64,000 bases of DNA from Patescibacteria group bacterium (GCA_041665145.1 JBAYJK010000004.1:2434-66433), one strand, 5' to 3'. Positions 1,020 to 62,903 are shown, counted from the stretch's first letter. The notes: generated from the letters alone by a model not told the origin. Numbers and translations are program-made.

Positions 1020-1439
1020 ATGAATAAATTTACAAAAATATTTATTGCTATCGCTTCAGTTCTTGTTATCGGAGGAACGATTGTGCTTGCAATATTCGGA
1101 CCGAGGGAATCGGGAAATATCGAATCTCGAAATCCGAATATCGATATAAGTGCATCCCCTTATATTCCTGATGTGAAACAGAGAATAACTCCCAAAGTTC
1201 CGAAACAAGTGCTCACTAATGAATTGCGCCAGAAAATTACTGCCCAATTGCCATACGTAGGCAATGGCTTCGTGGTCGAATATTTGCCGACAGCACAAAA
1301 ATTTTATGTACGTATGGGTGTACCCACCAAGGACTCCGAAGAATATCGCGCCGCGCTTATGTGGTTGAAAAATGTAGGGATTGCCGATCCGGAAGACACG
1401 AGTGACATCCAATTCACGTTTCCGATAATCAAAAAGTAG
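1020..1439 (+). CDS. hypothetical membrane-anchored protein
   Basis: 139-aa ORF starting 2 nt after the previous stop. N-terminal TM helix (IFIAIASVLVIGGTIVLAIF). No recognisable domain. Confidence 0.5.
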   Translation: MNKFTKIFIAIASVLVIGGTIVLAIFGPRESGNIESRNPNIDISASPYIPDVKQRITPKVPKQVLTNELRQKITAQLPYVGNGFVVEYLPTAQKFYVRMGVPTKDSEEYRAALMWLKNVGIADPEDTSDIQFTFPIIKK

Positions 1440-1582
1440 TTCTTAGTTCTCATTTCTTAGTTCTTAAAGAGTTCTCAGTTCTTAAGTACCAAACTGAATC
1501 GTTTAAAAATTATTACTTAAGAAATCTTTGAGAACTGCGAACTAGAAATTGAGAACTGTAAACTATGAACTAAAAACTATTT
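1437..1582. repeat. long imperfect AT-rich 'word' palindrome (terminator-like)
   Basis: Built from words such as GTTCTTAG / GAGAACTG. Perfect inner stem TTCTTAAGTA 1479-1488 pairs with TACTTAAGAA 1514-1523. Outer arms are imperfect and boundaries approximate. Confidence 0.5.
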
Positions 1583-2713: not shown

Positions 2714-2734
2714 GGGGAAAGTATAGCAGGAATA

Positions 2735-2846
2735 GTTTTCAGTTTACAATTTCCAGTTTCTAATCAATTTTTAAAACACAGTTTTCACTGAAAATTTCTC
2801 CATTGAAAACTGAATAGAAATTGAAAACTGAAAATTGAAAATTAAT
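2735..2846. repeat. AT-rich 'word' palindrome (GAAAACTGAAAATTG family)
   Basis: Stem CAGTTTTCA 2779-2787 pairs with TGAAAACTG 2804-2812, embedded in repeated words GAAAACTG/GAAAATTG. Lies between convergent/tandem minus-strand genes. Boundaries approximate. Confidence 0.5.
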
Positions 2847-5216
2847 TTAAAGTCGTGCTCTCTGCGTTATTTCCTGTTCGACGATCTCGACCGGCTTAGC
2901 GTATTTCAAACGGGAGAGTTGGACAATTGCTTCTGCCACTTTCTTATTGCGCTTAGCTTCTTCCTTTACCATGTCTTTGGTCATATCGACATGAAATGGA
3001 GGCACCGGATCGTTGTCAATATTGGTCTTCATATATGCGCTGAAGCGGTCAACATTGATTAAATCCACCTCATTGAATACCGGGGAAAACTCATGCTGCA
3101 AATAGTTTGCGTCCGTGACGCCAACCCTGAAACCGATGATCGAACCGACGTTACCGAAAATAGCGTTTTTGACTTCCTCTTCCATCTGTCCGATAAACTG
3201 GTTTGCGACTACCAAATTCAAACGGTATTTACGGGCCTCAGAAAGTATGGTCGCAAAATCCGGTGTGGCAAAGTTCTGAAACTCGTCGACATACAGGAAG
3301 AAGTCCTTACGATCCTCTTCGGGCATATCCGCACGACTCATCGCGGCGGCAAGGATCTTCGGAATAAGCACGAGACCCAAAAAGCTTGAATTCTCTTCCC
3401 CGAGCTTACCCTTCGACAGATTGATAATAAGTATCTTTCCTTCATCCATGACTTTCCTGAAATCAAACGAACTTTTGCTCTGACCGATGATGTTTCTGAT
3501 CATTTTGTTGGTAACAAACCGACCGAATTTGGATGCGATATAGTCGAGTACTTCCGATTTATGAAAGTCGGATGTTTGGGCTATCTGATCGGTCCAATAA
3601 CGCCGGATTATCGGGTCTTTTACCTTCGGTAACAGCATGTTCACGAATTTCGGGTCGGTAAGAATACGGTTCACCTCAATGAATGTATTACCCTCCTCGC
3701 TCATGACCGTAAGCATCGCGTTACGCACGGCATGCTCGAAACGAGGTCCGACGATACCGGTGCGCTGCGGGTCGTACAGTTTATACATAAGATTAATAAT
3801 TGCCGAACACATAAAATGTTTTTGCTCTTCCGTATGTGCTTCCATGATATTCAAACCCATCGGACGGTCCGAATCTGAAGGATCAAAGTACACAACGTCT
3901 TCCGCACGTTCGGGAGGAATAAATTCGAGTAGCGCCTCGGCTGCATCACCGTGAGGGTCAATAAAACATAAACCTCGTCCTTTTTTAATATCCTGCGCAA
4001 GCATCGAAACCAGAAGCTGCGTCTTACCCATACCGGTCTTACCGATAATATACAAATGCCTGCGACGATCCGACGGCCCGATAAACACGGGGACCTTCAC
4101 GCCGCGGTACTTGGAAAACCCGATAAATATGCCGGTACTGGGCATATTGGCCGGTGCGGGAGCACGCTTCGCCTTGATCCATTTGATGTTCGGTGTTTCA
4201 ACGCTTTTATTGGGAAAGTGATAGAGCGTCGCCAGTTCGTCCGGCGAAAGGATTGAAACCTCGTGCCATCGCCAAAAATCGATGAAACCAAATGACCGGT
4301 AGACGAAATTAAACATAAACGTCGGCTTCAAAAATATGTGCACTTTGGTAAATTGATTCAGTTCGGAATTAAACTGGGCAAACGCGGATTTGATGTTTGC
4401 GATATGCATATCGGCAGAATCTTTAGTTTCCGCATTTACCGCAAAACGGATTACGGTTTCAAAACCGGGTTTTTGGCATTTCTCATCAATCTTGTCGAGG
4501 GTTTTCTGGTCAACCTTGTACGTTGCCTTCTCAGGATTTGTTTCGTTTTTACGAGTCTGCGAGACATAATTTTTACCTTCTTTTTTCCAGGTTGCTCTGG
4601 CGGGGCGTACGAGAAATTGGATGAGCGCTCCTTCGCCTTCGTTCATTTTTGACAGCGCAGACGTTAAACCTGAGAGTGAGTCGTTCGGCAAGTCTTTGTA
4701 AGTTTTGATCGGTTGATACGCAGTTTCCTTCTGAACCAAAGCGCCGAACGCCACCTTCCCCTGCTCCGTGAAAATGTTCGGCTCCTCACTGGTGGAAATA
4801 TCGGCCGAAGGATAATTTGCGTAGATCTGTTTTTCGACTAAATCTTTGATTTTCAACGGAACATGTACATAAAACAGAATCTCTCCATATCGGGCGACGA
4901 TTTCAAACGCAAGCATTGTTTCGATATCCATCATGGTAAACAAATCCGGAAGGAAGTCGTATGATTTTTTGATGGAGTACAGTGATGCAAAAAACTGCTC
5001 CGCAGCATCTATTTTCACTTCATTATCCTTGGACATTTTCACCTGCAGAACCGCCATGTCCAAAGACATTTCTTCACGTTTCTCAATCTTGTGAAACAAC
5101 ACTGCCAAGCGGAACAAAATATAGAGCGTTATGACAATGGACACGCCTACCATAAACAAGGTTAAATAGTAGAAGAGATTACTGACAATTTCCGGTGGTA
5201 TAGCTGCAGAGAACAT
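2847..5216 (-). CDS. VirD4/TraG/TraD-type coupling-protein-like ATPase (FtsK/HerA superfamily)
   Basis: N-terminal TM segment, Walker A IIGKTGMGKTQ, Walker B FFLYVDEFQNF, C-terminal EARKYRLNLVVANQFIGQ block typical of T4SS coupling proteins. Start moved to the second ATG (5216), which lies 8 nt after TATACT 5225-5230; the track ORF starts at 5222. Confidence 0.6.
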   Translation of the reverse strand: MFSAAIPPEIVSNLFYYLTLFMVGVSIVITLYILFRLAVLFHKIEKREEMSLDMAVLQVKMSKDNEVKIDAAEQFFASLYSIKKSYDFLPDLFTMMDIETMLAFEIVARYGEILFYVHVPLKIKDLVEKQIYANYPSADISTSEEPNIFTEQGKVAFGALVQKETAYQPIKTYKDLPNDSLSGLTSALSKMNEGEGALIQFLVRPARATWKKEGKNYVSQTRKNETNPEKATYKVDQKTLDKIDEKCQKPGFETVIRFAVNAETKDSADMHIANIKSAFAQFNSELNQFTKVHIFLKPTFMFNFVYRSFGFIDFWRWHEVSILSPDELATLYHFPNKSVETPNIKWIKAKRAPAPANMPSTGIFIGFSKYRGVKVPVFIGPSDRRRHLYIIGKTGMGKTQLLVSMLAQDIKKGRGLCFIDPHGDAAEALLEFIPPERAEDVVYFDPSDSDRPMGLNIMEAHTEEQKHFMCSAIINLMYKLYDPQRTGIVGPRFEHAVRNAMLTVMSEEGNTFIEVNRILTDPKFVNMLLPKVKDPIIRRYWTDQIAQTSDFHKSEVLDYIASKFGRFVTNKMIRNIIGQSKSSFDFRKVMDEGKILIINLSKGKLGEENSSFLGLVLIPKILAAAMSRADMPEEDRKDFFLYVDEFQNFATPDFATILSEARKYRLNLVVANQFIGQMEEEVKNAIFGNVGSIIGFRVGVTDANYLQHEFSPVFNEVDLINVDRFSAYMKTNIDNDPVPPFHVDMTKDMVKEEAKRNKKVAEAIVQLSRLKYAKPVEIVEQEITQRARL

Positions 5217-5235
5217 ATACATTCAGTATAACAGG

Positions 5236-5402
5236 ATTGAATAAAAGTTGAAAGTTGTAAGGCGTAAGCCTTAATAAAGCCTAAAGTTGTAAGACATAAG
5301 TTGAAATAACGGCCAAAATTAAACGTTGCATTGATTTAAATACTTATGGCTTAAAAGTTACAGCTTTATTACAACTTAACGCTTACGACTTACAACTTAA
5401 AT
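5236..5402. repeat. long imperfect 'word' palindrome (AAGTTGTAAG / TAATAAAGC family)
   Basis: The left arm (approx 5236-5300) resembles the reverse complement of the right arm (approx 5341-5400). The right arm GCTTTATTACAACTTA.CG.TTACGACTTACAACTT recurs at approx 52914-52953. Confidence 0.55.
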
Positions 5403-6221
5403 TTACCAGTTTCTTCCAAATCCATAACTTACTCCCCCCGCTCCGAAGAACGAGTACATGAGATAGTACGGCGGGTAATGGGCTGTAGAGTAAAAATATT
5501 TGATTCTTCGTACTACCTGTGTATCAAGCTCCTGTACCGATGCGGTTGACGTAATATACGAACCTTGGACCGGAAAGTTCGCACCTGCTCCCGAGCTTTG
5601 TATAGAGATCCCTGTTGCAGCATACAGCGGAACAATCGTCATGTAGCTGTACAAATATGTACCTACGGGCAACGTGATGGTAGAAAAGTACATATTCGAA
5701 AGTCCGCACGCAGATCCGTATGATGCTGTGGTCCCACCGTTTATTTGCGGATTTTGACCTCCTGTTGAGTTGAATGCATAGTGAGCAAGATACGTCGTCT
5801 CACTTATTGTATTCGTATACAAAAGCGTGCTTTGAATTGAACTTGTTGAGGTTCCCCAACAAACAGTAATAGTGGTTCCCGTATACCCCGTTAAATCAAC
5901 GTACAACGGCTGTCCGGGATTCAAGGTAACACCCGGGAGAGAAAATGTTTGACCACCTCCCGCGCTTGATGACGAGACATTCACCGTTGCGGTACCGACC
6001 GTAGTTGTACCGGGAATTCCCGCACCCGATTCCAAGCTCTGGATTGCTTTTTCAATTCCCGATTCAGCGGCAAAATACGCTTTTTGAGTTTTATCTTCAA
6101 GCGTCGCTTTCTTCTGTTCGAAAACCATCTGAGTCGTCACGGACGCACCCACCAAAGCAAATGTTGCCAACAATAATAAGGTGATGATAATCAGCTGTCC
6201 GCTATTTTTTCGTAATCTCAT
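5403..6221 (-). CDS. PilX_N-like (pseudopilin-like) secreted protein
   Basis: 272 aa, GGAG 8 nt upstream. The N-terminus RKNSGQLIIITLLLLATFALVGASVTTQMVFEQKKA...AESGIEKAI resembles the PilX N-terminal hydrophobic helix. The remainder is S/T/G-rich beta-type sequence. Confidence 0.45.
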   Translation of the reverse strand: MRLRKNSGQLIIITLLLLATFALVGASVTTQMVFEQKKATLEDKTQKAYFAAESGIEKAIQSLESGAGIPGTTTVGTATVNVSSSSAGGGQTFSLPGVTLNPGQPLYVDLTGYTGTTITVCWGTSTSSIQSTLLYTNTISETTYLAHYAFNSTGGQNPQINGGTTASYGSACGLSNMYFSTITLPVGTYLYSYMTIVPLYAATGISIQSSGAGANFPVQGSYITSTASVQELDTQVVRRIKYFYSTAHYPPYYLMYSFFGAGGVSYGFGRNW

Positions 6222-17018: not shown

Positions 17019-17675
17019 ATGCCACAAAAAAATGTCCGCAAACCATACGTCGAAAACGGTTATTACCACATCTACAATCGTGGGGTAAATAAAGAGCTGA
17101 TCTTCTGCGATGAATCTGACTACCGCATGTTTCTTTTTATAGTAAAACTATATCTAATTCCGCCAGAAGAAGCTTTACGGCAACTCTCAAATAATCATTT
17201 CCCGCACCCACGGCATTTGGAGAATTTCCATAAACAGTTAACCGTAGTGGCTTTTTGCCTCATGCCAAACCACTTCCATTTTTTACTCCATCAAACAGAT
17301 CAAAAAACAATAATAAATTTCATGCACGCATTGAGCACCAAATACTCAATGTACTTTAATAAAAAATACGCACGGGTTGGGCCAATGTTTCAAGGTGCCT
17401 ATAAAGGAATTCTCATCGAGAATGACATGTATCTTTTATATCTTTCAAGTTATATTCATCGCAATCCCACTAAATACGTATCATACCCATTCTCTAGCTA
17501 TTCGTGGTTTTTAAAAAAATTAAGAAATGACTGGTTTGACCCTGGTGCTATTCTAGACTTCTTTTCCCAACGTTCTATTTTTATACCCAAAACTAGCGCG
17601 TCGTATCAATCTTTTGTGAGCAGTTACGATGGAGAGTGCGATGACAATCTAAAGCCCTTAACGTTTGAGGGCTGA
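17019..17675 (+). CDS. IS200/IS605-type Y1 (HUH) transposase / REP-associated tyrosine transposase (RAYT)-like
   Basis: 218 aa. HUH motif NHFHFLL and catalytic Tyr helix SYIHRNP; GYYHIYNRG N-terminus typical of the family. Confidence 0.75.
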   Translation: MPQKNVRKPYVENGYYHIYNRGVNKELIFCDESDYRMFLFIVKLYLIPPEEALRQLSNNHFPHPRHLENFHKQLTVVAFCLMPNHFHFLLHQTDQKTIINFMHALSTKYSMYFNKKYARVGPMFQGAYKGILIENDMYLLYLSSYIHRNPTKYVSYPFSSYSWFLKKLRNDWFDPGAILDFFSQRSIFIPKTSASYQSFVSSYDGECDDNLKPLTFEG

Positions 17676-25548: not shown

Positions 25549-25662
25549 ATACGAATCAAAAGTTTCAAGGCTTAATGTTTAAGGCAATTAAGTCTTACTG
25601 ACTTACGACTTGAAAATTGAATAGAAATTAGAAATTGAGAATTAAAAATTAATTTTGTGTAT

Positions 25663-31511: not shown

Positions 31512-31934
31512 TCAGTCGTATTTCAACTGGTCGGCTTTGTTTTTTTCCCGGGGAATATAGGTAAACGTAACAGGAATTTTCAATTCATTTAATAATGTGT
31601 GAATCTGCAGAATAAACTCCCGCATACGCGCTTCTTTTACTTTCCACCGACCGTTTAATTGTTCAACAACCAGTTTGGAATCCAAAAGAAAACTAATTGG
31701 TTCTGAAGGATTGGACTCATGAGTCTTATAAGACTCATTGGACTTATTTGACAAATACTCCAATGCGTATATTACAGCCAAATACTCTGCTTCGTTGTTG
31801 GTGCAATGCTCTAATCGAACACGGTTTTGGATGTTTCGAGTTTCGGATTTCGAGTTTCGGATTTCAATTACGTACATCGCCCACCCGGGACCGGGGTTTC
31901 CAGAAGATGCGCCATCGGTATAAACAGTGATCAT
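31512..31934 (-). CDS. rnhA: ribonuclease HI with in-frame repeat insertions
   Basis: DGASSGNPGPG, NNEAEYLAVIYALE, LDSKLVVEQL and REKNKADQL (DEDD pattern). TTTAAT lies 5 nt before the ATG. Confidence 0.8.
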   Translation of the reverse strand: MITVYTDGASSGNPGPGWAMYVIEIRNSKSETRNIQNRVRLEHCTNNEAEYLAVIYALEYLSNKSNESYKTHESNPSEPISFLLDSKLVVEQLNGRWKVKEARMREFILQIHTLLNELKIPVTFTYIPREKNKADQLKYD

Positions 31935-31993
31935 ATTTAATTAAAACTCAAAATTCAAATGTCAAATAATACCAAATCTCGTGAAACAGTTTG

Positions 31994-33256
31994 TTATTTG
32001 TCATTTAAGCTTGATTTGTTATTTGTGGATTTGAGCTTTGAATTTGCAATCAAAATCCCCCCCAACATCACCAATATCAACCCTTCTCCGACAATGGTCA
32101 TCCAGGTTGACGCAAGATAGCTGTAGCGCGGGATAAAATACAGATTGCCGATTACATTAATCACAAATCCGACAAGGTATACCCATACGAGGAGCATTTC
32201 TTTTTTCTGCAGAAACAGGAGCCACGTTAACGCACTTGTCACAAAAAAGATGGGGTATGAGAGCCCCAGAATCTGCAGCGGAACGATTGAAGCATGATAG
32301 TCACTTTTGATAAGTACCAGAAACGGAGCGATAAAATATGTCCCGACCGTAAACACCAATGACGCAACAAGCAGTAACGCCATTGCCTTGGTAAACACCG
32401 ATGTAAACCGCTCGCGGTTGTCCTGATAGAGTTTCACATAGTGGGGAAAAATCGCGTTTGCAAAAAACGTTGCAAATGCCAAGGGAAATTCAAAAAATTT
32501 ATAGGCAAGTTGGTACACTCCGATATCCGCGTTAGTTTTAAGTGCAGAAAGAACAAACACGTCGGCACGGAAATACATGGTGTTCAGAAAAAGCATCAAC
32601 CCGACCGGAGCAGCCTCTTTCATCAGCAACCATAATTCCTCAATAAGAAACGGTTCTTTAAAGAAATGCACATCCAAATATTTCCGCGCCAAGAGATATC
32701 CGACAACAACCGTCAGGAGGCTTCCACCGACCAGAGACAACACCATCATCGGCAACCCGAATGGCATCGCAACCAGCATAGACAACAACCCTCCCGCACT
32801 ACCGACGAGTGCCGCAATGACCGAAAGATCGTAGCGAAGCAACAACTGAAACAGTAAATTAATACTGGTGAAATAGCCGAAGAACAGAATGCTCGGAACA
32901 AACAAAACAACGATCAGTTTTTCACTGTGTTGAAAAAAAGTTTGCCGGGTAAATAACAGAAACGCTCCGATAACCAGAACGGACATGAGAAAGAACATGG
33001 TCCGCAACGCGTTCAATGTTGAATAGTGCGAAAGGTCTTCTTTATATTTTCGAATATACACGGCGTTTAAGCCGAAGTCCACAAACAGATAGAAAAAAGC
33101 GACGAGTGCATACGCCTTCGCGTATACCCCGTACCCTGCCGCACCCAAGTATCGCGCAATAATAACCGTGGTGACGAAGCCCAAAAAAGAGGTGCCGAAC
33201 CGCCCGACAAATTGAATAAACGTATTGTATAAAACTCGTTGTTTGAGCGACGGCAT
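31994..33256 (-). CDS. MOP/Wzx-type oligosaccharide flippase
   Basis: About 12 TM helices. Start set at ATG 33256 (TATAAT 33263-33268, 6 nt upstream). The track's 17-aa N-terminal extension is translated repeat DNA. Confidence 0.65.
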   Translation of the reverse strand: MPSLKQRVLYNTFIQFVGRFGTSFLGFVTTVIIARYLGAAGYGVYAKAYALVAFFYLFVDFGLNAVYIRKYKEDLSHYSTLNALRTMFFLMSVLVIGAFLLFTRQTFFQHSEKLIVVLFVPSILFFGYFTSINLLFQLLLRYDLSVIAALVGSAGGLLSMLVAMPFGLPMMVLSLVGGSLLTVVVGYLLARKYLDVHFFKEPFLIEELWLLMKEAAPVGLMLFLNTMYFRADVFVLSALKTNADIGVYQLAYKFFEFPLAFATFFANAIFPHYVKLYQDNRERFTSVFTKAMALLLVASLVFTVGTYFIAPFLVLIKSDYHASIVPLQILGLSYPIFFVTSALTWLLFLQKKEMLLVWVYLVGFVINVIGNLYFIPRYSYLASTWMTIVGEGLILVMLGGILIANSKLKSTNNKSSLNDK

Positions 33257-33399
33257 GGAAGTATTATACTCAAATGCAATTTTCAATTTGCAGTTTTCAA
33301 TTTTCATTCAATTTTGAAATTGATTAAAAACTGGAAACTAAAAACTGAAAACTGTGCGTCAGCTTGCTCTTCTGACGCACATATGCTATACTATAAGTC

Positions 33400-33891
33400 A
33401 TGTCAGATCTTAAATCAGTCATCGCATTTTTTATCGGCCTTGTTTTCTTTGTGGTACTTGTCGTATTTGCAATCGGAAGAATCCGTGGCGGAGCCAAGCC
33501 TACTTCGGTCAGCGCTTCCATTACGGCTACCATTACACAAGCACCGTCGCCGACTCCTGTGGGTTTACAGGCTGCAAAGAAACCCTCTTTTATTGACAGA
33601 ATAAAGAGCTTTTTCACTGCCCGAAAGGTAACTCCTACCCCAACAACTCCAGTGCCAAATCCAACTGCGGCAGTTGCCAACGGGGCATCAAATAGTCCTA
33701 ATTTCCAACTTAAGGACGCAGTAAGACCAACAGTTATTCTCTATACCCAAACAAAAGGTGGAGTAAAACAACCGTCGGTGAATACTGTTTCCGGCGTTGC
33801 AACAATTCCTGAAACCGGTGCAGAGACATTCGTGTTACCGCTTGCCAGCGCGTTGGGAGGACTGGGAATCTATTTGAAGAAAAGAAAATAA
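33400..33891 (+). CDS. small surface protein with an LPXTG-like (IPETG) sortase signal
   Basis: N-terminal TM/signal helix, P/T-rich segment, then C-terminal IPETG + hydrophobic stretch + KKRK. Confidence 0.6.
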   Translation: MSDLKSVIAFFIGLVFFVVLVVFAIGRIRGGAKPTSVSASITATITQAPSPTPVGLQAAKKPSFIDRIKSFFTARKVTPTPTTPVPNPTAAVANGASNSPNFQLKDAVRPTVILYTQTKGGVKQPSVNTVSGVATIPETGAETFVLPLASALGGLGIYLKKRK

Positions 33892-34031
33892 TCTTCTGAT
33901 TCCGTTTCTAATTCCTAGTTTTTAGTTTCTATTGAAGTATTAGTTTCTAGGTGTTAATTTACAAACGTTTGCAAAATAGAAAATAGAAATTGGTAACTCA
34001 ATAGAAACCAGTAATTAGAAACTAAAAACTA
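33892..34031. repeat. 'word' palindrome between convergent genes
   Basis: Perfect 16-bp inverted repeat: TAGTTTTTAGTTTCTA 33916-33931 pairs with TAGAAACTAAAAACTA 34016-34031. The right arm supplies the trmD stop codon. Confidence 0.7.
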
Positions 34032-34877
34032 AGCTTTCTTCTTCGTTTCCTTCCACGCTTCCTGAATCTGCCATTCCCGGATTTTTTTGGGGTCTCCTGA
34101 TATTAAAACATCAGGAACTTTTTTTCCCCGAAATTCGCGAGGTAAGGTATATTGAGGATACTCGAGTAAAGAGATCTTTGCAGAGTTTCCAGTTTTCAAT
34201 TTACAATTTTCAGTGAAGGTGGGATTAGAATCATCAGTCTGAAGGTCGGGATCATGAGTGATTGTAAATAATTCTTCCCGGTCGATTTCAAAAAAGGTTT
34301 CGTTAACCGTTGCGTCTTCTTTTTTAAGAACTCCCGGAATTAGTCGTACTAGAGCGTCAATTACCACCATTGCCGCCGCTTCCCCGCTGGAGAGAACGTA
34401 GTTACCGATGGACAACTCTTCATCTATATAGTCTACGATTCGTGCGTCGAATCCTTCGTAGTGGCCGCAGATTAATAAAACATGATCACGTATCACGCAT
34501 CGCGCATCATTCATCTGATCCGTACCGTTCGTTTCGAGATCCGCGATCCGAGATTCGAGATGCGAGATTCTGTCCCGTGCCCAGGATTGGGTAAGTAAAG
34601 TTCCCTTTGGTGAAAGAGCGATTTTATAGGCTTTGCCGAATTGTTTCTCGATATGTTCAATTGCTTCAACAAGCGGTTCAATTTTCAGAAGCATCCCCGC
34701 GCCCCCACCGAACGGGTGATCATCCACCGTCTTATGTTTGTCATGAGCAAAATCCCGCAGCTGCACTACATTAAATGTAACAAGTCCTTTTTCCACTGCC
34801 CGGTTGATAATGCTGTGGTGCAAAAACGGTTCTACGACTTCGGGGAATAGTGTTAGTACTGTAATGTTCATTGGCAA
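34029..34877 (-). CDS. trmD: tRNA (guanine37-N1)-methyltransferase with two in-frame repeat insertions
   Basis: TLFPEVVEPFL, DDHPFGGGAGMLLKIEP and IGNYVLSSGE motifs. At 282 aa it is longer than I recall for typical TrmD proteins (not checked). Confidence 0.85.
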   Translation of the reverse strand: MPMNITVLTLFPEVVEPFLHHSIINRAVEKGLVTFNVVQLRDFAHDKHKTVDDHPFGGGAGMLLKIEPLVEAIEHIEKQFGKAYKIALSPKGTLLTQSWARDRISHLESRIADLETNGTDQMNDARCVIRDHVLLICGHYEGFDARIVDYIDEELSIGNYVLSSGEAAAMVVIDALVRLIPGVLKKEDATVNETFFEIDREELFTITHDPDLQTDDSNPTFTENCKLKTGNSAKISLLEYPQYTLPREFRGKKVPDVLISGDPKKIREWQIQEAWKETKKKA

Positions 34878-36786: not shown

Positions 36787-36860
36787 TTTCACAGCTACTA
36801 TAACAAAATTGAATCAATTTCGGTAATAACGCGGGTAAAGTGCGGGAATAGGGGTAAAGA

Positions 36861-36943: not shown

Positions 36944-38452
36944 CTAGCGCGAGACGAGAGGAATGTAATTGTAGTATTCGACACTGCAGGCAAACGTTTT
37001 CCACCCGGATACCGCGCTAAAATCCGCGGCGGCGGCAATCCGCAGCTGCCCTGCATCGCAGCTCTTGACAGTCATGGTGGCCGTCAATCCATTGTTCACC
37101 AACGTCGCAAATTGAGCGCCGTACCAGTTCATCGATTGACCTTCCTGCAGGCTAATGCCATTGCCATACGCGTCGAACAGGTCGGCGCGAAGGCTGTAGC
37201 TCTGGCCAGGATGGACCGTGGTCAACCCCTCGGGGACCGAGTCGATAACGATCGACGCCAGCTTCGCCGGCAGAACGGTAAATGACAACGTCGCCGCCGT
37301 CTCGCAACCATACCGGTTACAGGCCGTGACATTTGCCACGTATTGTCCCGCAACGGTGATTGTGGTCGTCGCCCAGTTTCCGTACTGAACCATAGTTGTT
37401 CCCGTGATCGCGAACGTCCAGGTAACGCCCGATTGCGTCGAGCTCAAGCCAGCGGCGCATGTAATTACTTCGCCGGCTTTTTTACCGTCGTCGCACGCTG
37501 CGACCAGACCCTCAATGGGCTGGGGCAACTCGACATACATCGGCGACACCGCCGGCAAGCCGGCAGAGGCGTTCGACGTCGTAAACAACGTGCGGGTCAT
37601 CCCACTCTGAAAAAACTGGATGACCTCGCGGTCCGGGACATAGCTGCTCGGGGACAGTCCTACGCAGAATCCATTATTGCAGTTCGGCTGGAAAGTCGTG
37701 GTCACTAACACACGGCTTGGGTTGCCCGCTCGATACACATGCGTATCGGGACCAGCTTTTGCTTCGTAAACAAGACCGCCCGCGTCGTCGAACGCGGGAA
37801 AGTTCTGGTCATTGCCTACATCGGCCGGGGCATACCAGCTCCCGGGCGCACCCGGGACTTGTTGCCGAATTGCGTAAATATAGCTGTAGCGGCAACTTGC
37901 CGCAATCAGTCCGCCGGGCACCCAACTCGGGTTCCGGCATGCGGCGAATGAAGCATCAACTCGGGCAACATTACTCAGCGTTACGTTGCTGTCCGATACT
38001 ACCAGACTAGCAGTCATAAGATGGTTCGTCTGACCGTCTCCAACGGCCTGAACAAAAACCATCTTTTTGGTAAGCCGATCGATCGCCGGCATGTAGCCGG
38101 TAATCCCCAACGTCTGGGTCAGCCCGGTCCAGATATCGTAAACGGCCAACTCCTGGTCCAACCAGCTGATTTTGCTATACACAACGTACCTGGTGTCCAG
38201 CCACGTCGGCCGGCTCGAGAGAGATTCCGACGTCGTCAGGATGTTCCCAACCGAGTCATGCACCTCGAGAAAGCCAGACTCATTCATGAGCGCCACTGTG
38301 GGCGTGATGCCCCACATCGATTGCGGTCCCGCGCTCAGCGCGGCTGCCGTCTGAGCATTCCCGCCCAGCAAGGTAACAGACAAAACGATTGCCAACAACG
38401 CGGCTGCGGCCATCGTGGCCGCCAACAGATGGGTGAAACGAGTCTTGTTCAT
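36944..38452 (-). CDS. secreted beta-propeller/Ig-like surface protein, paralogue 1 (G+C-rich)
   Basis: Start moved to ATG 38452 with AGGAGGAGGG upstream (track start 38608). The signal peptide MNKTRFTHLLAATMAAAALLAIVLSVTLLGGNAQTAAALSAGP is homologous to the N-terminus of 39082-41094. Confidence 0.65.
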   Translation of the reverse strand: MNKTRFTHLLAATMAAAALLAIVLSVTLLGGNAQTAAALSAGPQSMWGITPTVALMNESGFLEVHDSVGNILTTSESLSSRPTWLDTRYVVYSKISWLDQELAVYDIWTGLTQTLGITGYMPAIDRLTKKMVFVQAVGDGQTNHLMTASLVVSDSNVTLSNVARVDASFAACRNPSWVPGGLIAASCRYSYIYAIRQQVPGAPGSWYAPADVGNDQNFPAFDDAGGLVYEAKAGPDTHVYRAGNPSRVLVTTTFQPNCNNGFCVGLSPSSYVPDREVIQFFQSGMTRTLFTTSNASAGLPAVSPMYVELPQPIEGLVAACDDGKKAGEVITCAAGLSSTQSGVTWTFAITGTTMVQYGNWATTTITVAGQYVANVTACNRYGCETAATLSFTVLPAKLASIVIDSVPEGLTTVHPGQSYSLRADLFDAYGNGISLQEGQSMNWYGAQFATLVNNGLTATMTVKSCDAGQLRIAAAADFSAVSGWKTFACSVEYYNYIPLVSR

Positions 38453-38564
38453 TTTAATCGCCCTCCTCCTGAGGGGTGCTGCGTTACTAAAATTTATTAG
38501 TCCAGTTTTGTGCCTACTTCTCCCAAGCACACAAGGGGCCCATTTAGGGTCAGAGAGCAGAAAG

Positions 38565-38700
38565 AGAAAACTCAAAATCCAAATATACAAATGACAAATG
38601 AAGCACAAAATTCAAATATTAATCATATATTGGAATTTTTTTAGTTTTTAAATTTCAATTGAATTTTGTCATTTGAATTTTGAATTTGTTATTTTCCCAT
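38565..38700. repeat. 'word' palindrome (CAAATGACAAATG family) inside the paralogue-1 leader
   Basis: CAAATGACAAATGAAGCACAAAATTCAAAT faces ATTTGAATTTTGTCATTTGAATTTTGAATTTG. Related words occur at 41255-41310 and 31935-32045. Confidence 0.5.
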
Positions 38701-38751
38701 ATTTCCTCCTCTCCAACCCTAAATGGTCGTTTAATTTTTGTTGCTCTTTGG

Positions 38752-38764
38752 GATGTTAAAGATC
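38752..38764 (-). promoter_or_regulatory. boxA-like element in the paralogue-1 leader
   Basis: The minus strand reads AGATCTTTAACATCC, immediately followed by CAAAGAGCAAC. Confidence 0.5.
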
Positions 38765-38828
38765 TAATCTCTTCGAGCCCATAATAATCCAGCAATTAGG
38801 ATTGTTTGGACTCAAGTTATATCCTATA

Positions 38829-38857
38829 ATTGTATACATACTGCGTGCGTATGTCAA
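38829..38857 (-). promoter_or_regulatory. promoter TTGACA-17-TACAAT (paralogue 1)
   Basis: Minus-strand TTGACA 38852-38857 and TACAAT 38829-38834. The leader is about 375 nt. Confidence 0.7.
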
Positions 38858-38994
38858 GTTAAAAGTATAAAGTAAAAGGTCTGAAGCAAAGTGAGAAGTA
38901 GGAAGGGTAAAGTAAGAAATTCTAGGAGATATGGGAGAAAGGTGAAATGAGGGTAATGAGGAAATAACGCGGGTAAAATGCGGGAATAAAGGAA

Positions 38995-39018
38995 AGATCC
39001 CAAAGAGCAACTGAAACC
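38995..39018. repeat. 24-nt 3'-flank repeat (copy 2)
   Basis: AGATCCCAAAGAGCAACTGAAACC. It is preceded by AATAACGCGGGTAAAATGCGGGAATA (38963-38988), which also occurs at 36825-36850 and, degenerate, at 41616-41640. Confidence 0.85.
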
Positions 39019-41380: not shown

Positions 41381-41454
41381 ACTATACTTGTGTAATTTCA
41401 TAAAATCCTCCTCTCCAACCCCAAGCGGGTTGTTAAAATTTTGTTGCTCTTTGG

Positions 41455-41467
41455 GATGTTAAAGATC
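41455..41467 (-). promoter_or_regulatory. boxA-like element in the paralogue-2 leader
   Basis: The minus strand reads AGATCTTTAACATCC. Confidence 0.5.
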
Positions 41468-41531
41468 TAGACTCTTCGGGCCCATAACAACCCAGCAATT
41501 AGGATTGTTTGGACTCAAGTTATATCCTATA

Positions 41532-41560
41532 ATTATATACATACTGGGTGCGTATGTCAA
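41532..41560 (-). promoter_or_regulatory. consensus promoter TTGACA-17-TATAAT (paralogue 2)
   Basis: Minus-strand TTGACA 41555-41560 and TATAAT 41532-41537. The leader is about 430 nt. Confidence 0.8.
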
Positions 41561-41639
41561 GACTGAAAGAACTTAAGGGGAATATGGGAGAGAGGTAAAA
41601 TGAGGGTGATTAGGGAATAAAGCGGGGAATATGCGGGAA

Positions 41640-43541: not shown

Positions 43542-43546
43542 GTTGT

Positions 43547-44200: not shown

Positions 44201-44298
44201 ATGTTCAGTAATATACTTGTCTAAATGTCTCAATGTCTTAATGTCTAATTGTCTTAGACTTTCGGACCTTCAGACCTTATGACACTCAGACGGATACG

Positions 44299-45276
44299 CT
44301 ATGATTGCTTGTGTGCAAACACCACAATATTCGGTAATGTTCCGTCTATTTTCATTGTATCAAAGGAATATATTTTGCGGGGGTCTTCGAGATTTAATAC
44401 ATAGTCGCCCTTCGGAATGGGCAAGTTGTTCACAAATACTCCGTGAGCGTCCGTACGGAAGAGCCGGACTATTTTGTCGCCCTGTTTGACGTAGGCAAGA
44501 ATTCCCTCAAGAGGCAGACCTGTTCCCGCATACACTTCACCGCGGACCACAAAGCTAGTTGATGGCTGAGGGTCGCGGGTCGCGGGTCGCGGGTCACTGG
44601 TCACGGGTCGGGGATCTGTGGTTACCGGTTGCGTGTCGCGGGTCGCGGGTCGCGGATCAACAGACTTTGTGTCTGATTGTCTTAATGTCTGAATGTCTTG
44701 TTGATCTGTCAAAGGTAAAACAGGAGTCTTTGGCTCAAGGCTCAGGGTTCCTGGCTCCGGACTCACGACGCGCGACTCGTGACTCGTGACCGAGGTCCCC
44801 ATCATCACCGCCTGCAACTTTTTCTTTTTCTCATCATACGCTTTATCAATGACATCCATATCTTCTTTGGGAGTGGCCCGCGGCTTATTCTGCAAGTACG
44901 TATTCAGTTTCTGCTGTGCCAACAGATGTTGCTGCAAAACGTCACGTGGTGGCAATGTAATCCCCAGCATTATTTTTGGCGGAGCATTGTTTTTTTTAAA
45001 ATAGTATTGCGTTGGTGAAGTAAGACGTTTAATCATATTTCTCAACCATATATCCATGGGACGGTCGTTGATCGGGACAAACGCAAACCCGATTCCAAGC
45101 AGAGCGGGAAGTGCCGCAATTGCGATGTTAATATACAACACGGCGGGAACGGCAAAGTACAAGACCAGTGCAAGCACGCTTCCGAATGCAAGATACACAA
45201 ACTGATGAATAGTGAGCTCTCCAATGAGCTTAAATTCAAAGGTGGTTATTTGCCGCGGTAAAGAATGTTCCTGCAT
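44299..45276 (-). CDS. PrgI/VirB3-like membrane protein with repeat linker and a beta-sandwich-like C-terminal domain
   Basis: Start set at ATG 45276 (TATAAT 45284-45289, 7 nt upstream). FEFKLIGELTIHQFVYLAFG plus two TM helices resemble the PrgI family. DPRPATR-type repeats, then C-terminal VVRGEVY...DAHGVFVNNLPIPKGDYVL (CarboxypepD_reg-like). Confidence 0.5.
   Translation of the reverse strand: MQEHSLPRQITTFEFKLIGELTIHQFVYLAFGSVLALVLYFAVPAVLYINIAIAALPALLGIGFAFVPINDRPMDIWLRNMIKRLTSPTQYYFKKNNAPPKIMLGITLPPRDVLQQHLLAQQKLNTYLQNKPRATPKEDMDVIDKAYDEKKKKLQAVMMGTSVTSHESRVVSPEPGTLSLEPKTPVLPLTDQQDIQTLRQSDTKSVDPRPATRDTQPVTTDPRPVTSDPRPATRDPQPSTSFVVRGEVYAGTGLPLEGILAYVKQGDKIVRLFRTDAHGVFVNNLPIPKGDYVLNLEDPRKIYSFDTMKIDGTLPNIVVFAHKQS
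44570..44653 (-). repeat. tandem heptanucleotide GGGTCGC tracts inside the PrgI-like gene
   Basis: Three perfect plus three degenerate units at 44570-44611; one degenerate plus two perfect units at 44633-44653. They encode the DPRPATR/DPRPVTS repeats. Confidence 0.8.
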
Positions 45277-45366
45277 ATTATTCATTATATACATTTTGGT
45301 GAAGAAGGAAGAGGTGGTAAATAAAGGAAACCCTCCTTCGCAAAAAGCTTCGGCGGGCAAAGGCAA

Positions 45367-51794: not shown

Positions 51795-51943
51795 GTTCGG
51801 TTGTATAACTTATAGTATTTTATCACACCACACGAAGATAAGCAAATTTCTGACATGAAATCATTATATAGAGAAAAGCTGAAAGTTGAAAGGTGTAAGT
51901 TGTAGTAAAGTTGTAACGAGGGAAGTTAAAAGTCAGAGTCGTT

Positions 51944-52002
51944 TTACTTAAGGCTTGCAGCTTTAGACTTTATTTCAACTTTCGCCTTACGACTTACAAC
52001 TT
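51944..52002. repeat. 59-bp inverted repeat, left copy (overlaps the yidC 3' end)
   Basis: Its reverse complement matches 52826-52884 at 53 of 59 positions (aligned by hand). Confidence 0.85.
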
Positions 52003-52825: not shown

Positions 52826-52884
52826 AAGTTGTAAGTTGAAAGGTGAAAGTTGAAATAAAGTCTAAAGCTGCAAGGTTGAAGTAA
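52826..52884. repeat. 59-bp inverted repeat, right copy (upstream of yidC)
   Basis: AAGTTGTAAGTTGAAAGGTGAAAGTTGAAATAAAGTCTAAAGCTGCAAGGTTGAAGTAA. It is followed by a second word arm up to about 52955. Confidence 0.85.
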
Positions 52885-52967
52885 AGCAATTCTGACTTAC
52901 AACTTCTCCAATTACGGCTTTATTACAACTTACGACTTACGAGTTACAACTTTTCCGCAAATTTCCC

Positions 52968-53480: not shown

Positions 53481-56370
<2,890 letters not shown>

Positions 56371-56393: not shown

Positions 56394-57158
56394 TTACATC
56401 AGTTTTTGTATTCCCCGTTGGATCCCAGTCGAATATTGCATAGCTTTTTTCGGACGATGCACGATTTCCACAGGCAAACCCAATTCTTTTCCGACAAGAC
56501 GAGAAATGTATTTCTCTTGTCCGTTATGAATAAGAAGATCTTCCGGCACAGAGAGCGCAAAATCCATAAACTCTTTGGCAAGATACGGATGAATTAATTG
56601 TATTTCCCATCGTTTAGCCATAGCTCCATCACGTTTTCCATCAATTTCCAGTAAAGGTAAGTCTTTCAAGATTTCCTTTCGGATTTCGATATTCGAATTT
56701 CGAATTTTCTTGTATTTACTATATCCTGCAAAAAGAATATCTGGTCCCTGACCAGTAAAAACTGTACGAATCCCCAGTTTGTGGGCGTACTCAAATGCTG
56801 CATAATAAACAGAGGCTAGGGCTTTCTGCATCTGGTTAGTTTCAACTCCGGAAACGGTCAGTAAATCGCTTACGTCAAGTTGAATTGAATTCAAGTAATC
56901 CTGATCAACTTCGACAAATTCTATTTTCTTTTTGAAGTGTGCTCCGAGCATAGTTGCAAACGGTCGGTCAAGGCTTTTGTCTGTCGCAACACTAAGAAAA
57001 TATGCTTCCGAAAAATATTTATTTACAAAATACGCTATCAAAGAAGAATCTATGCCACCCGAAACCACAACACCAATGGCACCCAAGTTGCTCTTGCTAA
57101 AGTGCGCAAATTGATCCTCCAGTAACGATTTATATATCTCTGTTTGTTGTGCTGTCAT
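56394..57158 (-). CDS. asparagine-synthase-like PP-loop ATP pyrophosphatase
   Basis: 254 aa. PP-loop VVVSGGIDSS and the Asn_synthase-like TGQGPDILFAGY. Its stop lies about 20 nt from the 23S 3' end (convergent). Confidence 0.55.
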   Translation of the reverse strand: MTAQQTEIYKSLLEDQFAHFSKSNLGAIGVVVSGGIDSSLIAYFVNKYFSEAYFLSVATDKSLDRPFATMLGAHFKKKIEFVEVDQDYLNSIQLDVSDLLTVSGVETNQMQKALASVYYAAFEYAHKLGIRTVFTGQGPDILFAGYSKYKKIRNSNIEIRKEILKDLPLLEIDGKRDGAMAKRWEIQLIHPYLAKEFMDFALSVPEDLLIHNGQEKYISRLVGKELGLPVEIVHRPKKAMQYSTGIQRGIQKLM

Positions 57159-59252: not shown

Positions 59253-60509
59253 GTGAAATACTTCATCATTACGTTTGGCTGTCAACAAAACAAAGCGGAT
59301 TCAGAGCGTATTGACCGTGCCTTCAAAAATAGAGGTTTCACCAAAGCACGAAGTTATAAAAACTCCAATTATGTCATCGTTAATACCTGTATGGTGCGTG
59401 AAAGTGCTGAGAATCGAGTTTACGGATTGGTCAATAACCTCGGTGTAATTAAAGAATCTGCACTCAAAAAGGGTATTCTATATAAGATCATTATTACTGG
59501 TTGTATGATCGGATTGGCATACCGCGATAAAACCGGAAAGTTTCTTAAGAAAATAAAGAACGCGATGCCGGCGGTTGATGAATTCATGCCGATTGAAGAA
59601 GTGGGGTTTGATTCCGAGCCGGTGCGGACCGATAAAAAGACTGCTTGGGTTACCATCTCTAACGGTTGTAATAATTTTTGCACGTTTTGTGTTGTTCCTA
59701 TGACACGGGGAAGAGAGGTTAGCCGACCATATGAAGACATACTGGAAGAATGCAAAGAACTGAAAAAACAAGGGTACACATACGTCACGCTTTTGGGACA
59801 AAACGTCAACTCATATGGAGCAGATCTCATTCTCGGACAAGAAAATATTCAAGCCATGAGAGATTTGGATAAAGTATATTTTGATAATCCGAAGCACGAA
59901 TTCCGAAATACGAAACAAGCTTCAAAATTAGAAGATTCGAAACCTTCGGGTTTGTCTCGAATTTCGGATTTCGGATTTCGAGATTTAAAGCCCGTGTATG
60001 TCAAGCACCTCGGCCGTTACCGTTTACCGACGCTTTTTCCACACCTGCTTGACGCAGTGGCAAAACTCGGATTCAAAACTGTTGATTTTATCTCTTCAAA
60101 TCCGTGGGATTTTTCTGACGAGCTTATTGATGTTATAGCACGAAATAGCAACATATCTCGTACTATTCATTTTGCTCTGCAATCCGGAGATAATAACGTT
60201 CTCAAAAGGATGAACCGATGGTACACACGCGAAAAATATTTGGAACTCGTGGAAAAAATGAGAACAAAAATTCCCGGTATCAGATTTACTACAGATATAA
60301 TTGTCGGCTTTTGTGGAGAGACTGAAGAAGAGTATCAAAATACGGTTGATCTGTGCAAGAAAGTTGGATTTTATAAGGCGTTCATTGCACGTTATTCACT
60401 CCGTCCTTTGACGGCTGCAACAAAAGTAATGAAAGATGACATTCCGGCAACCGTCAAGAAAAAACGCTGGCAGGAGCTTGATAGAATCGTGAACTTCCAG
60501 TACTACTAG
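59253..60509 (+). CDS. miaB: MiaB-like radical-SAM methylthiotransferase (repeat insertion; apparently no TRAM domain)
   Basis: GTG start 7 nt after TATAAT 59240-59245. FGCQQNKADSERI (N-terminal cluster) and NGCNNFCTFCVVP (radical SAM). The sequence ends soon after ARYSLRPLTAATKV, so the TRAM domain seems absent. Confidence 0.7.
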   Translation: MKYFIITFGCQQNKADSERIDRAFKNRGFTKARSYKNSNYVIVNTCMVRESAENRVYGLVNNLGVIKESALKKGILYKIIITGCMIGLAYRDKTGKFLKKIKNAMPAVDEFMPIEEVGFDSEPVRTDKKTAWVTISNGCNNFCTFCVVPMTRGREVSRPYEDILEECKELKKQGYTYVTLLGQNVNSYGADLILGQENIQAMRDLDKVYFDNPKHEFRNTKQASKLEDSKPSGLSRISDFGFRDLKPVYVKHLGRYRLPTLFPHLLDAVAKLGFKTVDFISSNPWDFSDELIDVIARNSNISRTIHFALQSGDNNVLKRMNRWYTREKYLELVEKMRTKIPGIRFTTDIIVGFCGETEEEYQNTVDLCKKVGFYKAFIARYSLRPLTAATKVMKDDIPATVKKKRWQELDRIVNFQYY

Positions 60510-62285: not shown

Positions 62286-62903
62286 TTATCTGCTTAGAAA
62301 ATCCTCGAGCAATTCCTTTTGTTCCTTTTGAGGAAGGGAGAAGTCTTTCCCGTGGCGGGAACGATACATTTCCGATAAAAAGATTGCTGTCGAAACCGAC
62401 ACATTCAAGCTTTGCACCATACCCTGCATGGGAATCAACACATGATAATCAGCAAGTTCAAGCGCCTCTTGAGATAACCCTCCATGCTCATTTCCAACTA
62501 ACAGAGCAACCTTCTCCGGCCATTTAAACTCATAGAGGTCAATTGCCTTGTCCGTAAGCGCCGTCGCAACTATCGTGTACCCTTCCTTTTTAAGTTTTTT
62601 TAGACATTGGGCGATTGGTGCTTGTTCCGGATTTCGCATTTCGAGCTTCGAATTTTTACTCCAAATCGTAAAATCAATCCACTTATTCGCACTGCTACTC
62701 GTCGCTTTTCCCACTTTTCGAGGCTTAAATGGCTCTGTGGTATCGAAAATAATGTGTACGTGCTGTATTCCGAACGCGTCGCACGTGCGAAAAATCGCTT
62801 CAACATTGTGGGGGTCAAAAATATCCTCTAAGACCACCGTAATATCACGTTGCCGTCGCGCCACGACTCCCTTCATCTTATCCGTCCTTTGTGCTGTCAC
62901 CAT
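62286..62903 (-). CDS. trmH: SpoU/TrmH-family RNA 2'-O-methyltransferase with in-frame repeat insertion
   Basis: ITVVLEDIFDPHNVEAIFRTCDAFG, LLVGNEHGGLS and IPMQGMVQSLNVSVSTAI motifs. Start set at ATG 62903 (TAAAAT 62910-62915, 6 nt upstream); the track start is TTG 62909. Confidence 0.8.
   Translation of the reverse strand: MVTAQRTDKMKGVVARRQRDITVVLEDIFDPHNVEAIFRTCDAFGIQHVHIIFDTTEPFKPRKVGKATSSSANKWIDFTIWSKNSKLEMRNPEQAPIAQCLKKLKKEGYTIVATALTDKAIDLYEFKWPEKVALLVGNEHGGLSQEALELADYHVLIPMQGMVQSLNVSVSTAIFLSEMYRSRHGKDFSLPQKEQKELLEDFLSR

Follow-up and report, generated by a model that had tools for sequence, protein, structure and literature searches.

How does short-period repeat DNA come to lie in frame inside genes for otherwise conserved enzymes? 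It is chiefly in Rickettsia that in-frame selfish repeats have been recorded within essential genes. The question is raised by a stretch of 64,000 nucleotides (nt) from a Patescibacteria genome, here called the window, in which the genes for RNase HI (rnhA) and for the tRNA m1G37 methyltransferase (trmD) each contain two repeat tracts. A preliminary description had pointed to four such stretches in frame, and all four indeed encode the proposed peptides in intact open reading frames (ORFs). The words of these tracts recur in intergenic hairpins, as had been claimed, and orthologue alignments delimit the inserts within enzymes that are otherwise conserved. On balance, and with some reserve, we favour the view that the tracts are dispersed short-period hairpin repeats which behave like the Rickettsia palindromic elements (RPE), are copied around the genome and are tolerated in loops.

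Tandem arrays were identified with Tandem Repeats Finder and a self-match scan, using Markov shuffles with preserved dinucleotide frequencies as null model. For hairpins, z denotes the folding energy relative to shuffled controls. TrmD (P0001) and RNase HI (P0145) have exact protein matches, and both are encoded on one contig of 918,908 bp. The gene order of the block is TPR – trmD – small membrane ORF – flippase – rnhA – hypothetical – groES – groEL. A scan of a genome collection with TrmD returned distant relatives only (34-44% identity); the syntenic relatives used below came from a protein search. The two genes and their tracts are the following.

31512..31934, minus strand: rnhA, RNase HI of 140 amino acids (aa), intact (Pfam RNase_H/RVT_3; PDB alignment; AlphaFold2 pLDDT 93.2).
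31713..31745, minus strand: rnhA array 2, period-9 GTCYNATRA (about 4 units) with a palindromic core, encoding NESYKTHESN.
31832..31869, minus strand: rnhA array 1, (TTTCGAG TTTCGGA) x 2.3, period 14/7, encoding EIRNSKSETRN (Tandem Repeats Finder).
34029..34877, minus strand: trmD, an ORF of 282 aa annotated with 280 aa (Pfam PF01746, PDB alignments, exact match to P0001).
34183..34229, minus strand: genome-specific part of trmD insert 2, a (RAAAYTG)n word block plus flank, encoding ..DDSNPTFTENCKLKTGNS.
34485..34570, minus strand: trmD insert 1, an inverted pair of heptamer arrays, ATCACGC-type at 34485-34509 and CGAGATC-type at 34535-34570.

The catalytic D7/E48/D85/D135 motifs of RNase HI are all present. 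Array 1 is built of two alternating heptamers (unit TCCGAAACTCGAAA) in 2.3 copies with 100% matches; an earlier reading of 31834-31865 as 2 x 15 nt was incorrect, since the period is 14. Its hairpin z is 0.13. AlphaFold2 places the encoded residues at the tip of the β2-β3 hairpin, a loop that is hypervariable across the RNase HI of Microgenomates and ranges from 0 to about 25 aa. A clean insertion could not be delimited there: the array replaces hypervariable-loop sequence and adds 0-11 aa, depending on the orthologue. The same site carries three different arrays, namely (TCCGAAACTCGAAA)2.3 in the window, a perfect 14-nt repeat (GTCGCGAGTCACGG)2.1 in the closest syntenic relative L004, whose RNase HI shows 83% protein identity, and a period-9 array (TCTCCCTTA)3.8 in L133. 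Because three close relatives hold three different arrays, the alignments indicate that the loop arrays are the result of turnover or repeated acquisition and not of the divergence of one ancestral array. Odd low-complexity β2-β3 loop inserts, for example FSAPISPKSPLSPLLPSLPI and KLIIKNPKLIIG, are also present in other Microgenomates RNase HI, and the comparison of these proteins suggests that repeat-derived inserts are common at this loop across the group.

The second rnhA tract had been described as a palindromic insert. The palindromic core was confirmed, with a modest hairpin (z = -1.75), but the element is a period-9 array and not a simple palindrome. It is common to the window and L133 and is missing from L004 and from more distant relatives, so that an ancestral loop is not what the orthologues display. 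In the AlphaFold2 model the array falls into the helix A–β4 loop with a pLDDT of 74-76.

Compared with solved TrmD structures, the enzyme of the window is longer by about 24 residues in the stretch 94-129 and by about 37 in the stretch 196-234. The first region corresponds to insert 1, whose DNA can be written as (ATCNCGN)5, a 25-nt loop and (NCGNGAT)3. The segment 34527-34570 had rightly been recognized as a repeat insert, but it is one arm of the inverted pair and not the whole element. Insert 1 adds 25 aa, RISHLESRIADLETNGTDQMNDARCVI, which are missing from the closest syntenic relative (L004/P0002) and from the 17 other TrmD sequences in an alignment of 19 relatives; here too, an ancestral loop was not found. 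In the more distant relative L005/P0003 this loop of TrmD is occupied by an independent insert, which consists of inverted period-8 arrays, (AATTGTTC)3.9 and (CAATTTAR)4.5, with a hairpin z of -4.5. In L005 (2668-2700, 4146-4180) a REP-like palindrome, CCTCCCCTATTAGGGGAGG, moreover codes for the C-terminal tail of TrmD, NPFLPPLLGED; the palindrome is found again upstream and represents a second kind of repeat lengthening a protein.

The second region is of mixed origin. A repeat word block does exist at 34185-34215, but its description as a genome-specific insert holds for a small part only: the (RAAAYTG)n array (34183-34215) is nested in a lineage-wide linker insertion (34176-34292), which makes up most of the region, and the genome-specific part amounts to about 6 aa when L004 is the reference and to about 16 aa against the others. 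The RAAAYTG block also builds the adjoining intergenic hairpins. The AlphaFold2 model of TrmD has a mean pLDDT of 79.6, with 85-97 in the core. Insert 1 is predicted to extend a helix (97-116) and to continue as a disordered segment (117-128), and the genome-specific residues 217-229 of insert 2 are predicted to be disordered (pLDDT < 50). The linker of about 20-25 aa that is shared with relatives from the candidate phyla radiation (CPR) is modelled as folded, with a strand at 195-199 and a helix at 200-207. The expectation that the inserts of both enzymes would map to surface loops was thus borne out by the AlphaFold2 models and PDB alignments, which place them at surface or disordered positions.

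The phenomenon turned out to be wider than noted before. At least five further genes of the window are affected, besides conserved genes of unrelated metagenomic contigs. The additional in-frame copies in the window are listed here.

1116..1144, plus strand: TCGAAAT-type array in frame in a small ORF (1020-1439), encoding GNIESRNPNIDIS.
44567..44791, minus strand: arrays of a PrgI-like gene (44299-45366), with about 12 x GGGTCGC, a TGTCTnAA period-8 array at 44676-44699 and GACTCGT units at 44766-44791.
56677..56707, minus strand: TTTCGAA-type array in frame in an Asn-synthase-like gene, encoding KIRNSNIEIRKE.
59886..59985, plus strand: complete hairpin element in frame in the gene of a MiaB-like radical-SAM methylthiotransferase (59253-60509).
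62623..62652, minus strand: TTTCGNR array in frame in a SpoU methylase gene, encoding SKLEMRNP, a replacement with no net gain in length.

The MiaB-like element lies within an insert of 41 aa (..NPKHEFRNTKQ...SRISDFGFR), which the orthologue of L008 does not have, and its DNA folds into a hairpin with -35.6 kcal/mol (z = -4.0). The GGGTCGC copies of the PrgI-like gene encode four DPRPATR-like heptapeptides, and about 29 aa of this insert are missing from the three orthologues compared. The Asn-synthase-like array is 97% identical over 31 nt to an array of the metagenomic locus L028. Flank duplications at the trmD and MiaB-like inserts (RD..RD, RDL..RDL) are ambiguous. The units TTTCGRR, CGAGATC and GGGTCGC are free of stop codons in all six frames. 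Coding-array units in general are stop-free, whereas most intergenic units carry stops, and where a single TTTCGRR array lies in a gene, the strand that is read is always TCSGAAA and the resulting peptide is hydrophilic.

The in-gene tracts were then set against the array population of the window. Tandem Repeats Finder reported about 30 rows with period 7. In the self-match scan 20 arrays of period 7 were detected, compared with 0.4 expected from the shuffles, followed by periods 8 (6 versus 0.1 expected) and 9 (4 versus 0.2 expected); all other periods were at background, with at most one array each for periods 3-6 and 10-12. Seven is therefore the commonest period, with 8, 9 and 14 being rarer, and the arrays comprise 3-12 imperfect units. 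The repeat families of rnhA and trmD are all short-period tandems (7, 9, 14) as well; three of them have heptamer units and often occur as hairpin pairs. The 5 kb of intergenic DNA contain 3.4 arrays per kb, the 56 kb of coding DNA 0.18. Many arrays form inverted pairs with the potential for long imperfect hairpins, for example at 5240-5403, 33904-34031, 52826-52952, 2734-2848 and 1437-1580. Values of z between -4 and -5.7 were obtained for the MiaB-like insert, the TrmD insert of L005 and intergenic copies. Pairs of TTTCGRR (TTTCGRRTTTCGRR with up to 2 mismatches) gave 30 matches compared with 9.9 expected, a number reached by none of 100 shuffles, and pairs of RAAAYTG (RAAAYTGRAAAYTR with up to 1 mismatch) gave 24 compared with 2.0 expected. 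The similarity between loci is not confined to the repeat unit (87% over 46 nt, 86% over 36 nt and 76% over 58 nt) and takes in aperiodic segments and irregular units, and the order of A-rich and T-rich arms is constant within each family. The intergenic elements described below are the following.

1437..1580: heptamer-array hairpin, its first unit, TAGTTCT, holding the stop codon of ORF 1020-1439.
2734..2848: heptamer-array hairpin of the RAAAYTG family, z = -5.7.
5240..5403: hairpin of the AAGTTGW family with 62-nt arms.
31951..32045: inverted repeat with short-period arms in and beside the rnhA-flippase spacer.
33277..33358: inverted heptamer arrays CAATTTT / AAAACTG between the divergent flippase and ORF163.
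33904..34031: heptamer-array hairpin between the convergent ORF163 and trmD, with 63-nt arms, -33.5 kcal/mol and z = -5.5.
44217..44278: hairpin of period-8 arrays TGTCTnAA / AGACnTTC adjoining the PrgI-like gene and of the same family as the array inside it.
51875..52002: arrays of the AAGTTGW family at the 3' end of yidC.
52826..52952: hairpin of the AAGTTGW family between yidC and tRNA-Ala/23S rRNA.

The right arm of 2734-2848 is 87% identical to 25610-25655 over 46 nt. The hairpin 33904-34031, whose last unit gives trmD its stop codon, is present in no relative. In L004, L007, L008 and L009 the gene order is kept, the spacer between trmD and the next ORF measures 0-20 nt and period-7 arrays are lacking. 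The right arm of 31951-32045 overlaps the 3' end of the flippase ORF, and in L004 the rnhA and flippase genes overlap. Since L005 and L133 do carry arrays while L004 and L007-L009 are without them, the trait is, as far as these contigs can tell, patchy even among close relatives.

Elements abut or provide the stop codons of ORF 1020-1439, the VirD4-like gene and trmD, and in all three cases the codon is inside the terminal unit of the neighbouring array (1437-1439, 2847-2849 and 34029-34031, respectively). The flippase-like ORF (31994-33307, minus strand) carries a false N-terminal extension of 17 aa, MKIENCKLKIAFEYNTS, which is generated by the left arm of 33277-33358 and includes the KIENCKLK already suspected to be spurious; the orthologue in L004 begins with MSSLKQRVLYN, and judged from this alignment the genuine start is likely to be MPSLKQRVLYN, near 33256. 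A role of the arrays as transcription terminators of this genome is unlikely: the canonical GC-rich terminators are separate, and arrays also occur between divergent genes.

To follow the TTTCGRR words beyond this genome, metagenome contigs were scanned for exact (TTTCGRR)4, a pattern that by itself demands at least four units. At least 120 matches were obtained, with a chance expectation that we estimate to be far below one. Among the matches listed, 103 short arrays remained after telomere-like ones were set aside, on contigs with a GC content from 35% to 69%, and a palindromic architecture of the type AAA-(TCCGAAA)4-CAAATCCGAATGACC…centre…-(TTTCGGA)4-TTT was frequent. The ordered string TCCGAAA TCCGAAA CTCGAAA TCCGAAA recurs in L035, L042, L052 and L082, composite modules such as CAAATCCGAA are enriched in the metagenomic loci, and irregular units and prefix modules are common to the window arrays and unrelated metagenomic contigs. 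In-frame copies were found in genes for PNPase, a DnaE-type polymerase, a GatA-like amidase, an ATP-dependent DNA ligase, a class-III aminotransferase and a protein kinase. In these genes the array is flanked on either side by conserved motifs that share its frame. In the DnaE-type polymerase both arms are in frame (SEIRNPKSEI…SDFGFRISDF), mirroring the MiaB-like insert of the window. The pattern is also present in 38 viral contigs. A search with a synthetic SEIRNPK-repeat protein gave 24 significant matches, all of them small spurious ORFs (short matches in a huge database); such SEIRNPK-like repeat ORFs are annotated in metagenome-assembled genomes (MAGs) of Acidobacteriota and Saprospiraceae.

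Two readings of these matches were discarded. A preference for exactly four units cannot be claimed, as the pattern itself required at least four, and long TTTCGGG arrays were set aside because their contigs are eukaryote telomere-like. In L060, L068, L090, L093, L095 and L122 long (TTTCGGG)n tracts grade into TTTAGGG repeats of the plant/algal telomere type, which have nothing to do with the bacterial elements. In many cases a (TCCGAAA)4 array stops between a few and some tens of nt upstream of a start codon, e.g. …CAAATCCGA ATG ACC (L071, L073, L082, L047, L070). For 34 of the 103 arrays among the matches listed, an ORF of 80 aa or more has its start codon between -6 and +80 nt of the array end, with observed offsets of 1-79 nt. 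This position recalls the start-proximal TAACTGA repeats of Beggiatoaceae.

What could produce such a distribution? Most likely the arrays are non-coding, selfish or neutral dispersed repeats that would multiply by copying, like repetitive extragenic palindromes (REP), miniature inverted-repeat transposable elements (MITE) and RPE. The intrusions in rnhA and trmD would then be local copies from a population of short tandem arrays which extends over the whole genome and accumulates in intergenic spacers. Survival inside a gene would need three things: a length that is a multiple of three, a unit free of stops on the reading strand, and a permissive surface loop. Copies that survive would be translated as hydrophilic, disordered or loop-extending peptides that spare the enzyme, and these would be neutral rather than useful. 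Spread by copying is supported by the similarity beyond the unit, by the constant arm order within families and by the modules common to other genomes. The copying machinery might be a hairpin-specific Y1 transposase, or fold-back template switching together with slippage. One gene of the window is relevant here.

17019..17675, plus strand: ORF for a Y1 (IS200-like / REP-associated) tyrosine-transposase-like protein (Pfam PF01797, 6e-9; NCBIfam NF047646, 34.8 bits and thus below its cut-off of 80).

This ORF is flanked by identical direct 15-mers, GAAGGGCGAGACCCT (17001-17015 and 17674-17688), each with a small AGGG…CCCT palindrome, and its flanks have no heptamer arrays. The Y1-like protein is a candidate for the acting enzyme only, and nothing links its gene to the arrays.

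Several observations weigh against spread of dispersed repeats by copying. No target-site duplications (TSD; ten elements examined), conserved termini or GTAG/CGTC heads were seen, and both element length and unit sequence vary widely. The DNA of trmD insert 1 folds no better than shuffles (z = 0.10), which rules it out as a stable hairpin. Its right arm, GCGCGAT GCGTGAT ACGTGAT, ends in the CGTGAT of the empty site of L004, and because this terminal CGTGAT is present in L004 the arm looks like local tandem growth and not like an insertion. The relatives in which presence or absence was compared are at most 83% identical in protein. As the metagenomic loci were chosen by pattern, the similarity among them is partly built in. 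Finally, the DNA examined represents 64 kb of a MAG genome of 919 kb, and translation of the inserts is a point that we infer.

The arrays could instead have grown in place without any mobility, by replication slippage that favours 7-nt units, as put forward for long simple repeats of bacteria, and that expands local seeds, with the inverted arm arising by fold-back or template switching, the words recurring through mutational or compositional bias and stop-containing units being filtered out of genes. We consider this unlikely on the whole and treat it as a serious rival because no TSD, defined ends or heads were seen and because the right arm of trmD insert 1 appears to have been seeded by the ancestral CGTGAT. 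The palindromy also fades into the flanks, units differ from locus to locus, and the arrays in viral contigs would be expected if host replication makes them. An excess of heptanucleotide repeats is known in many bacterial genomes, according to PMC4679880 and PMC4692102, which cite Mrazek 2007. Growth in place does not readily account for locus similarity that covers aperiodic segments and irregular units, for the same ordered unit string in L035, L042, L052 and L082 and the enrichment of composite modules like CAAATCCGAA, or for the constant arm order. The closest relatives examined, L004 and L007-L009, are essentially array-free although they presumably have the same replication machinery, and slippage by one unit (7 or 14 nt) in rnhA or trmD would shift the frame.

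A role of the inserts as adaptive, lineage-specific protein features such as interaction loops, encoded by repetitive DNA, appears very improbable. The folded TrmD linker insertion that CPR relatives have in common and the repeated gain of inserts in the same TrmD and RNase H loops are in line with it, but the genome-specific parts are missing from the nearest relatives and their sequences are wholly different between relatives. The periodicity is in the DNA and not in the protein, the same words fill intergenic DNA, the TrmD inserts and rnhA array 2 are modelled at low or reduced confidence, and the host enzymes are functionally unrelated.

Even less credible is that the inserts escape translation, either because the ribosome bypasses them or because they are cut out of the RNA. 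Bypassing has precedents in the 'byps' of yeast mitochondria and in gene 60 of phage T4, and some inserts would form strong mRNA hairpins (the MiaB-like one with -35.6 kcal/mol, the TrmD insert of L005 with z = -4.5). All in-gene copies keep the frame and are stop-free, however, while most intergenic units have stops, a filter expected only if the inserts are read, and single arrays always offer the hydrophilic strand to translation. Pairs of take-off and landing codons were not seen either, no search aimed at them having been made. That the arrays are phase-variable contingency loci or assembly artefacts, as tandem repeats are classic slippage switches and prone to misassembly, has next to no credibility: 10-21 kb of the window are 100.000% identical in three assemblies from other samples, with the same copy number across all arrays, which argues against artefacts and visible instability alike, and a change by one unit would frameshift rnhA and trmD, which are conserved housekeeping and not surface or contingency genes.

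We compared the arrays, which we still regard as dispersed repeats probably spread by copying, with known repeat systems. In 2000 Ogata and co-workers reportedly described RPE as dispersed palindromic repeats that lie between genes and also in frame in conserved functional genes, where they yield surface peptides remote from catalytic sites. RPE have a size of about 100-150 bp and family consensus sequences and are not known outside Rickettsia. The elements of the window likewise occur in intergenic DNA and in frame in functional genes (rnhA, trmD, MiaB-like, PrgI-like, Asn-synthase-like, SpoU), and by AlphaFold2 models of TrmD and RNase H and PDB alignments the inserted peptides are predicted to be at the surface and away from the active site. 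With respect to stable hairpins the picture is mixed: they are predicted for the MiaB-like element, the TrmD insert of L005 and intergenic copies, but not for trmD insert 1 and rnhA array 1. Unlike RPE, the elements are composed of 7-nt (also 8- and 9-nt) units, are very variable in length, are often single-armed in genes and belong to a word family found across phyla. The resemblance to RPE that had been proposed at the outset therefore holds for the behaviour, by analogy, and not for membership in an RPE family; homology to RPE-1 to RPE-8 is unlikely because of the heptamer periodicity.

Heptanucleotide long simple sequence repeats (SSR) are over-represented genome-wide, mainly intergenic and phylogenetically patchy (Mrazek 2007 as cited in PMC4692102 and PMC4679880), and the short tandemly repeated repetitive sequences (STRR) of cyanobacteria consist of 7-nt tandem units, CCCCAGT and others (Mazel 1990, cited in the same two articles). 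The arrays of the window share with both that 7-nt tandems exceed other periods (20 observed for 0.4 expected) and are mostly intergenic. None of the STRR units CCCCAGT, TTGGTCA and CAACAGT occurs in tandem within the window, and the arrays differ in being short, imperfect and hairpin-paired, in forming families with aperiodic modules and in being repeatedly in frame in housekeeping genes. The latter is not reported in PMC4679880 and PMC4692102, and of the TAACTGA sets in MacGregor 2015 (PMC4679880) just 10 are listed as lying inside ORFs.

TAACTGA direct repeats of Beggiatoaceae, cyanobacteria and Bacteroidetes (PMC4679880) and GGGAATC repeats of Xanthomonas (PMC4692102) resemble the arrays as 2-6 copies of one heptamer which are distributed across phyla without a known vector, lie near gene starts or ends and are sometimes inverted. 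They have other units, are almost wholly intergenic and are read as regulatory or G-quadruplex-forming, and TAACTGA carries stops whereas TTTCGRR is stop-free in six frames. Systems of REP, REP doublets forming hairpins (REPIN) and REP-associated tyrosine transposases (RAYT) are comparable with respect to abundant intergenic hairpins and the Y1-transposase-like gene in the window, but the element ends lack a REP of 20-40 nt with a GTAG/CGTC head. With MITE the elements share a non-autonomous size of about 80-250 nt, inverted arms and dispersed copies; TSD, a conserved terminal inverted repeat and a parent insertion sequence were not found here, and the arms are internally periodic. The open-access literature searched did not, as far as we found, describe heptamer-array hairpins in CPR, the TCCGAAA family or the in-frame occurrence of that family; it gave no match to the repeat DNA strings or the encoded peptides, and nothing relevant on CPR with palindromic or in-frame repeats.

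A bolder claim would be that the TTTCGRR/TCCGAAA arrays constitute an undescribed class of hairpin elements with 7-nt period which is actively propagated by a dedicated mechanism and routinely written in frame into essential genes (TrmD, RNase HI, MiaB-like, PNPase, a DnaE-type polymerase, GatA-like, DNA ligase), and which crosses phyla, with Patescibacteria, Acidobacteriota and Bacteroidota, as judged by source names, plus viral contigs. We regard this as possible but doubtful. If true, the class would be a general bacterial counterpart of the RPE and a recurrent source of new protein loops. On the reading that we favour, the same outcome as with RPE would have been reached from a different kind of DNA, paired heptamer arrays, in a reduced CPR genome, and the word family lies in frame in conserved genes of unrelated bacteria too. 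Should this hold, the unexplained excess of 7-nt repeats in bacteria would be tied to the evolution of protein loops. Nature's own insertions of 10-40 aa would make it possible to see which loops of TrmD, RNase HI, PNPase and other proteins bear them. Annotation would be affected as well, by false ORF extensions, spurious small 'SEIRNPK' proteins and inflated loop lengths in CPR. The presence of one word family in hosts with a GC content from 31% to 69% makes one ask how this family is spread or generated.

Some further features of the window were recorded. Genes similar to type IV secretion components at 2847-5222 and 41640-45366 (PrgI-like, TraC-like, VirB4-like and a VirD4-like coupling protein) keep their order in relatives. 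A repeat of about 155 nt is present at 38704-38858 and 41406-41561 with 91-93% identity; the stretches 36822-36857, 38925-38995 and 41578-41648 were recorded with it. The repeat bears consensus sigma-70-like promoters (TTGACA-17-TATAAT at 41560-41532 and TTGACA-17-TACAAT at 38857-38829), is accompanied by G-rich sub-repeats and adjoins paralogous large genes without Pfam match (36944-38608 and 39082-41094).

Rfam matches in the window were restricted to 23S rRNA and two tRNAs, and 16S and 5S rRNA were not detected within it. tRNA-Ala(UGC) at 53126-53201 is followed by the 23S rRNA gene at 53481-56371, and the heptamer hairpin 52826-52952 is situated just upstream. The gene for tRNA-Ala(GGC) is at 1607-1681, and 110 nt downstream a partial copy of its 3' half (1737-1796, 70% over 60 nt) was found, in which the core GTCCCCTAGGGTCCACTC is identical. 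An integration (att) site may have left this copy as its remnant.

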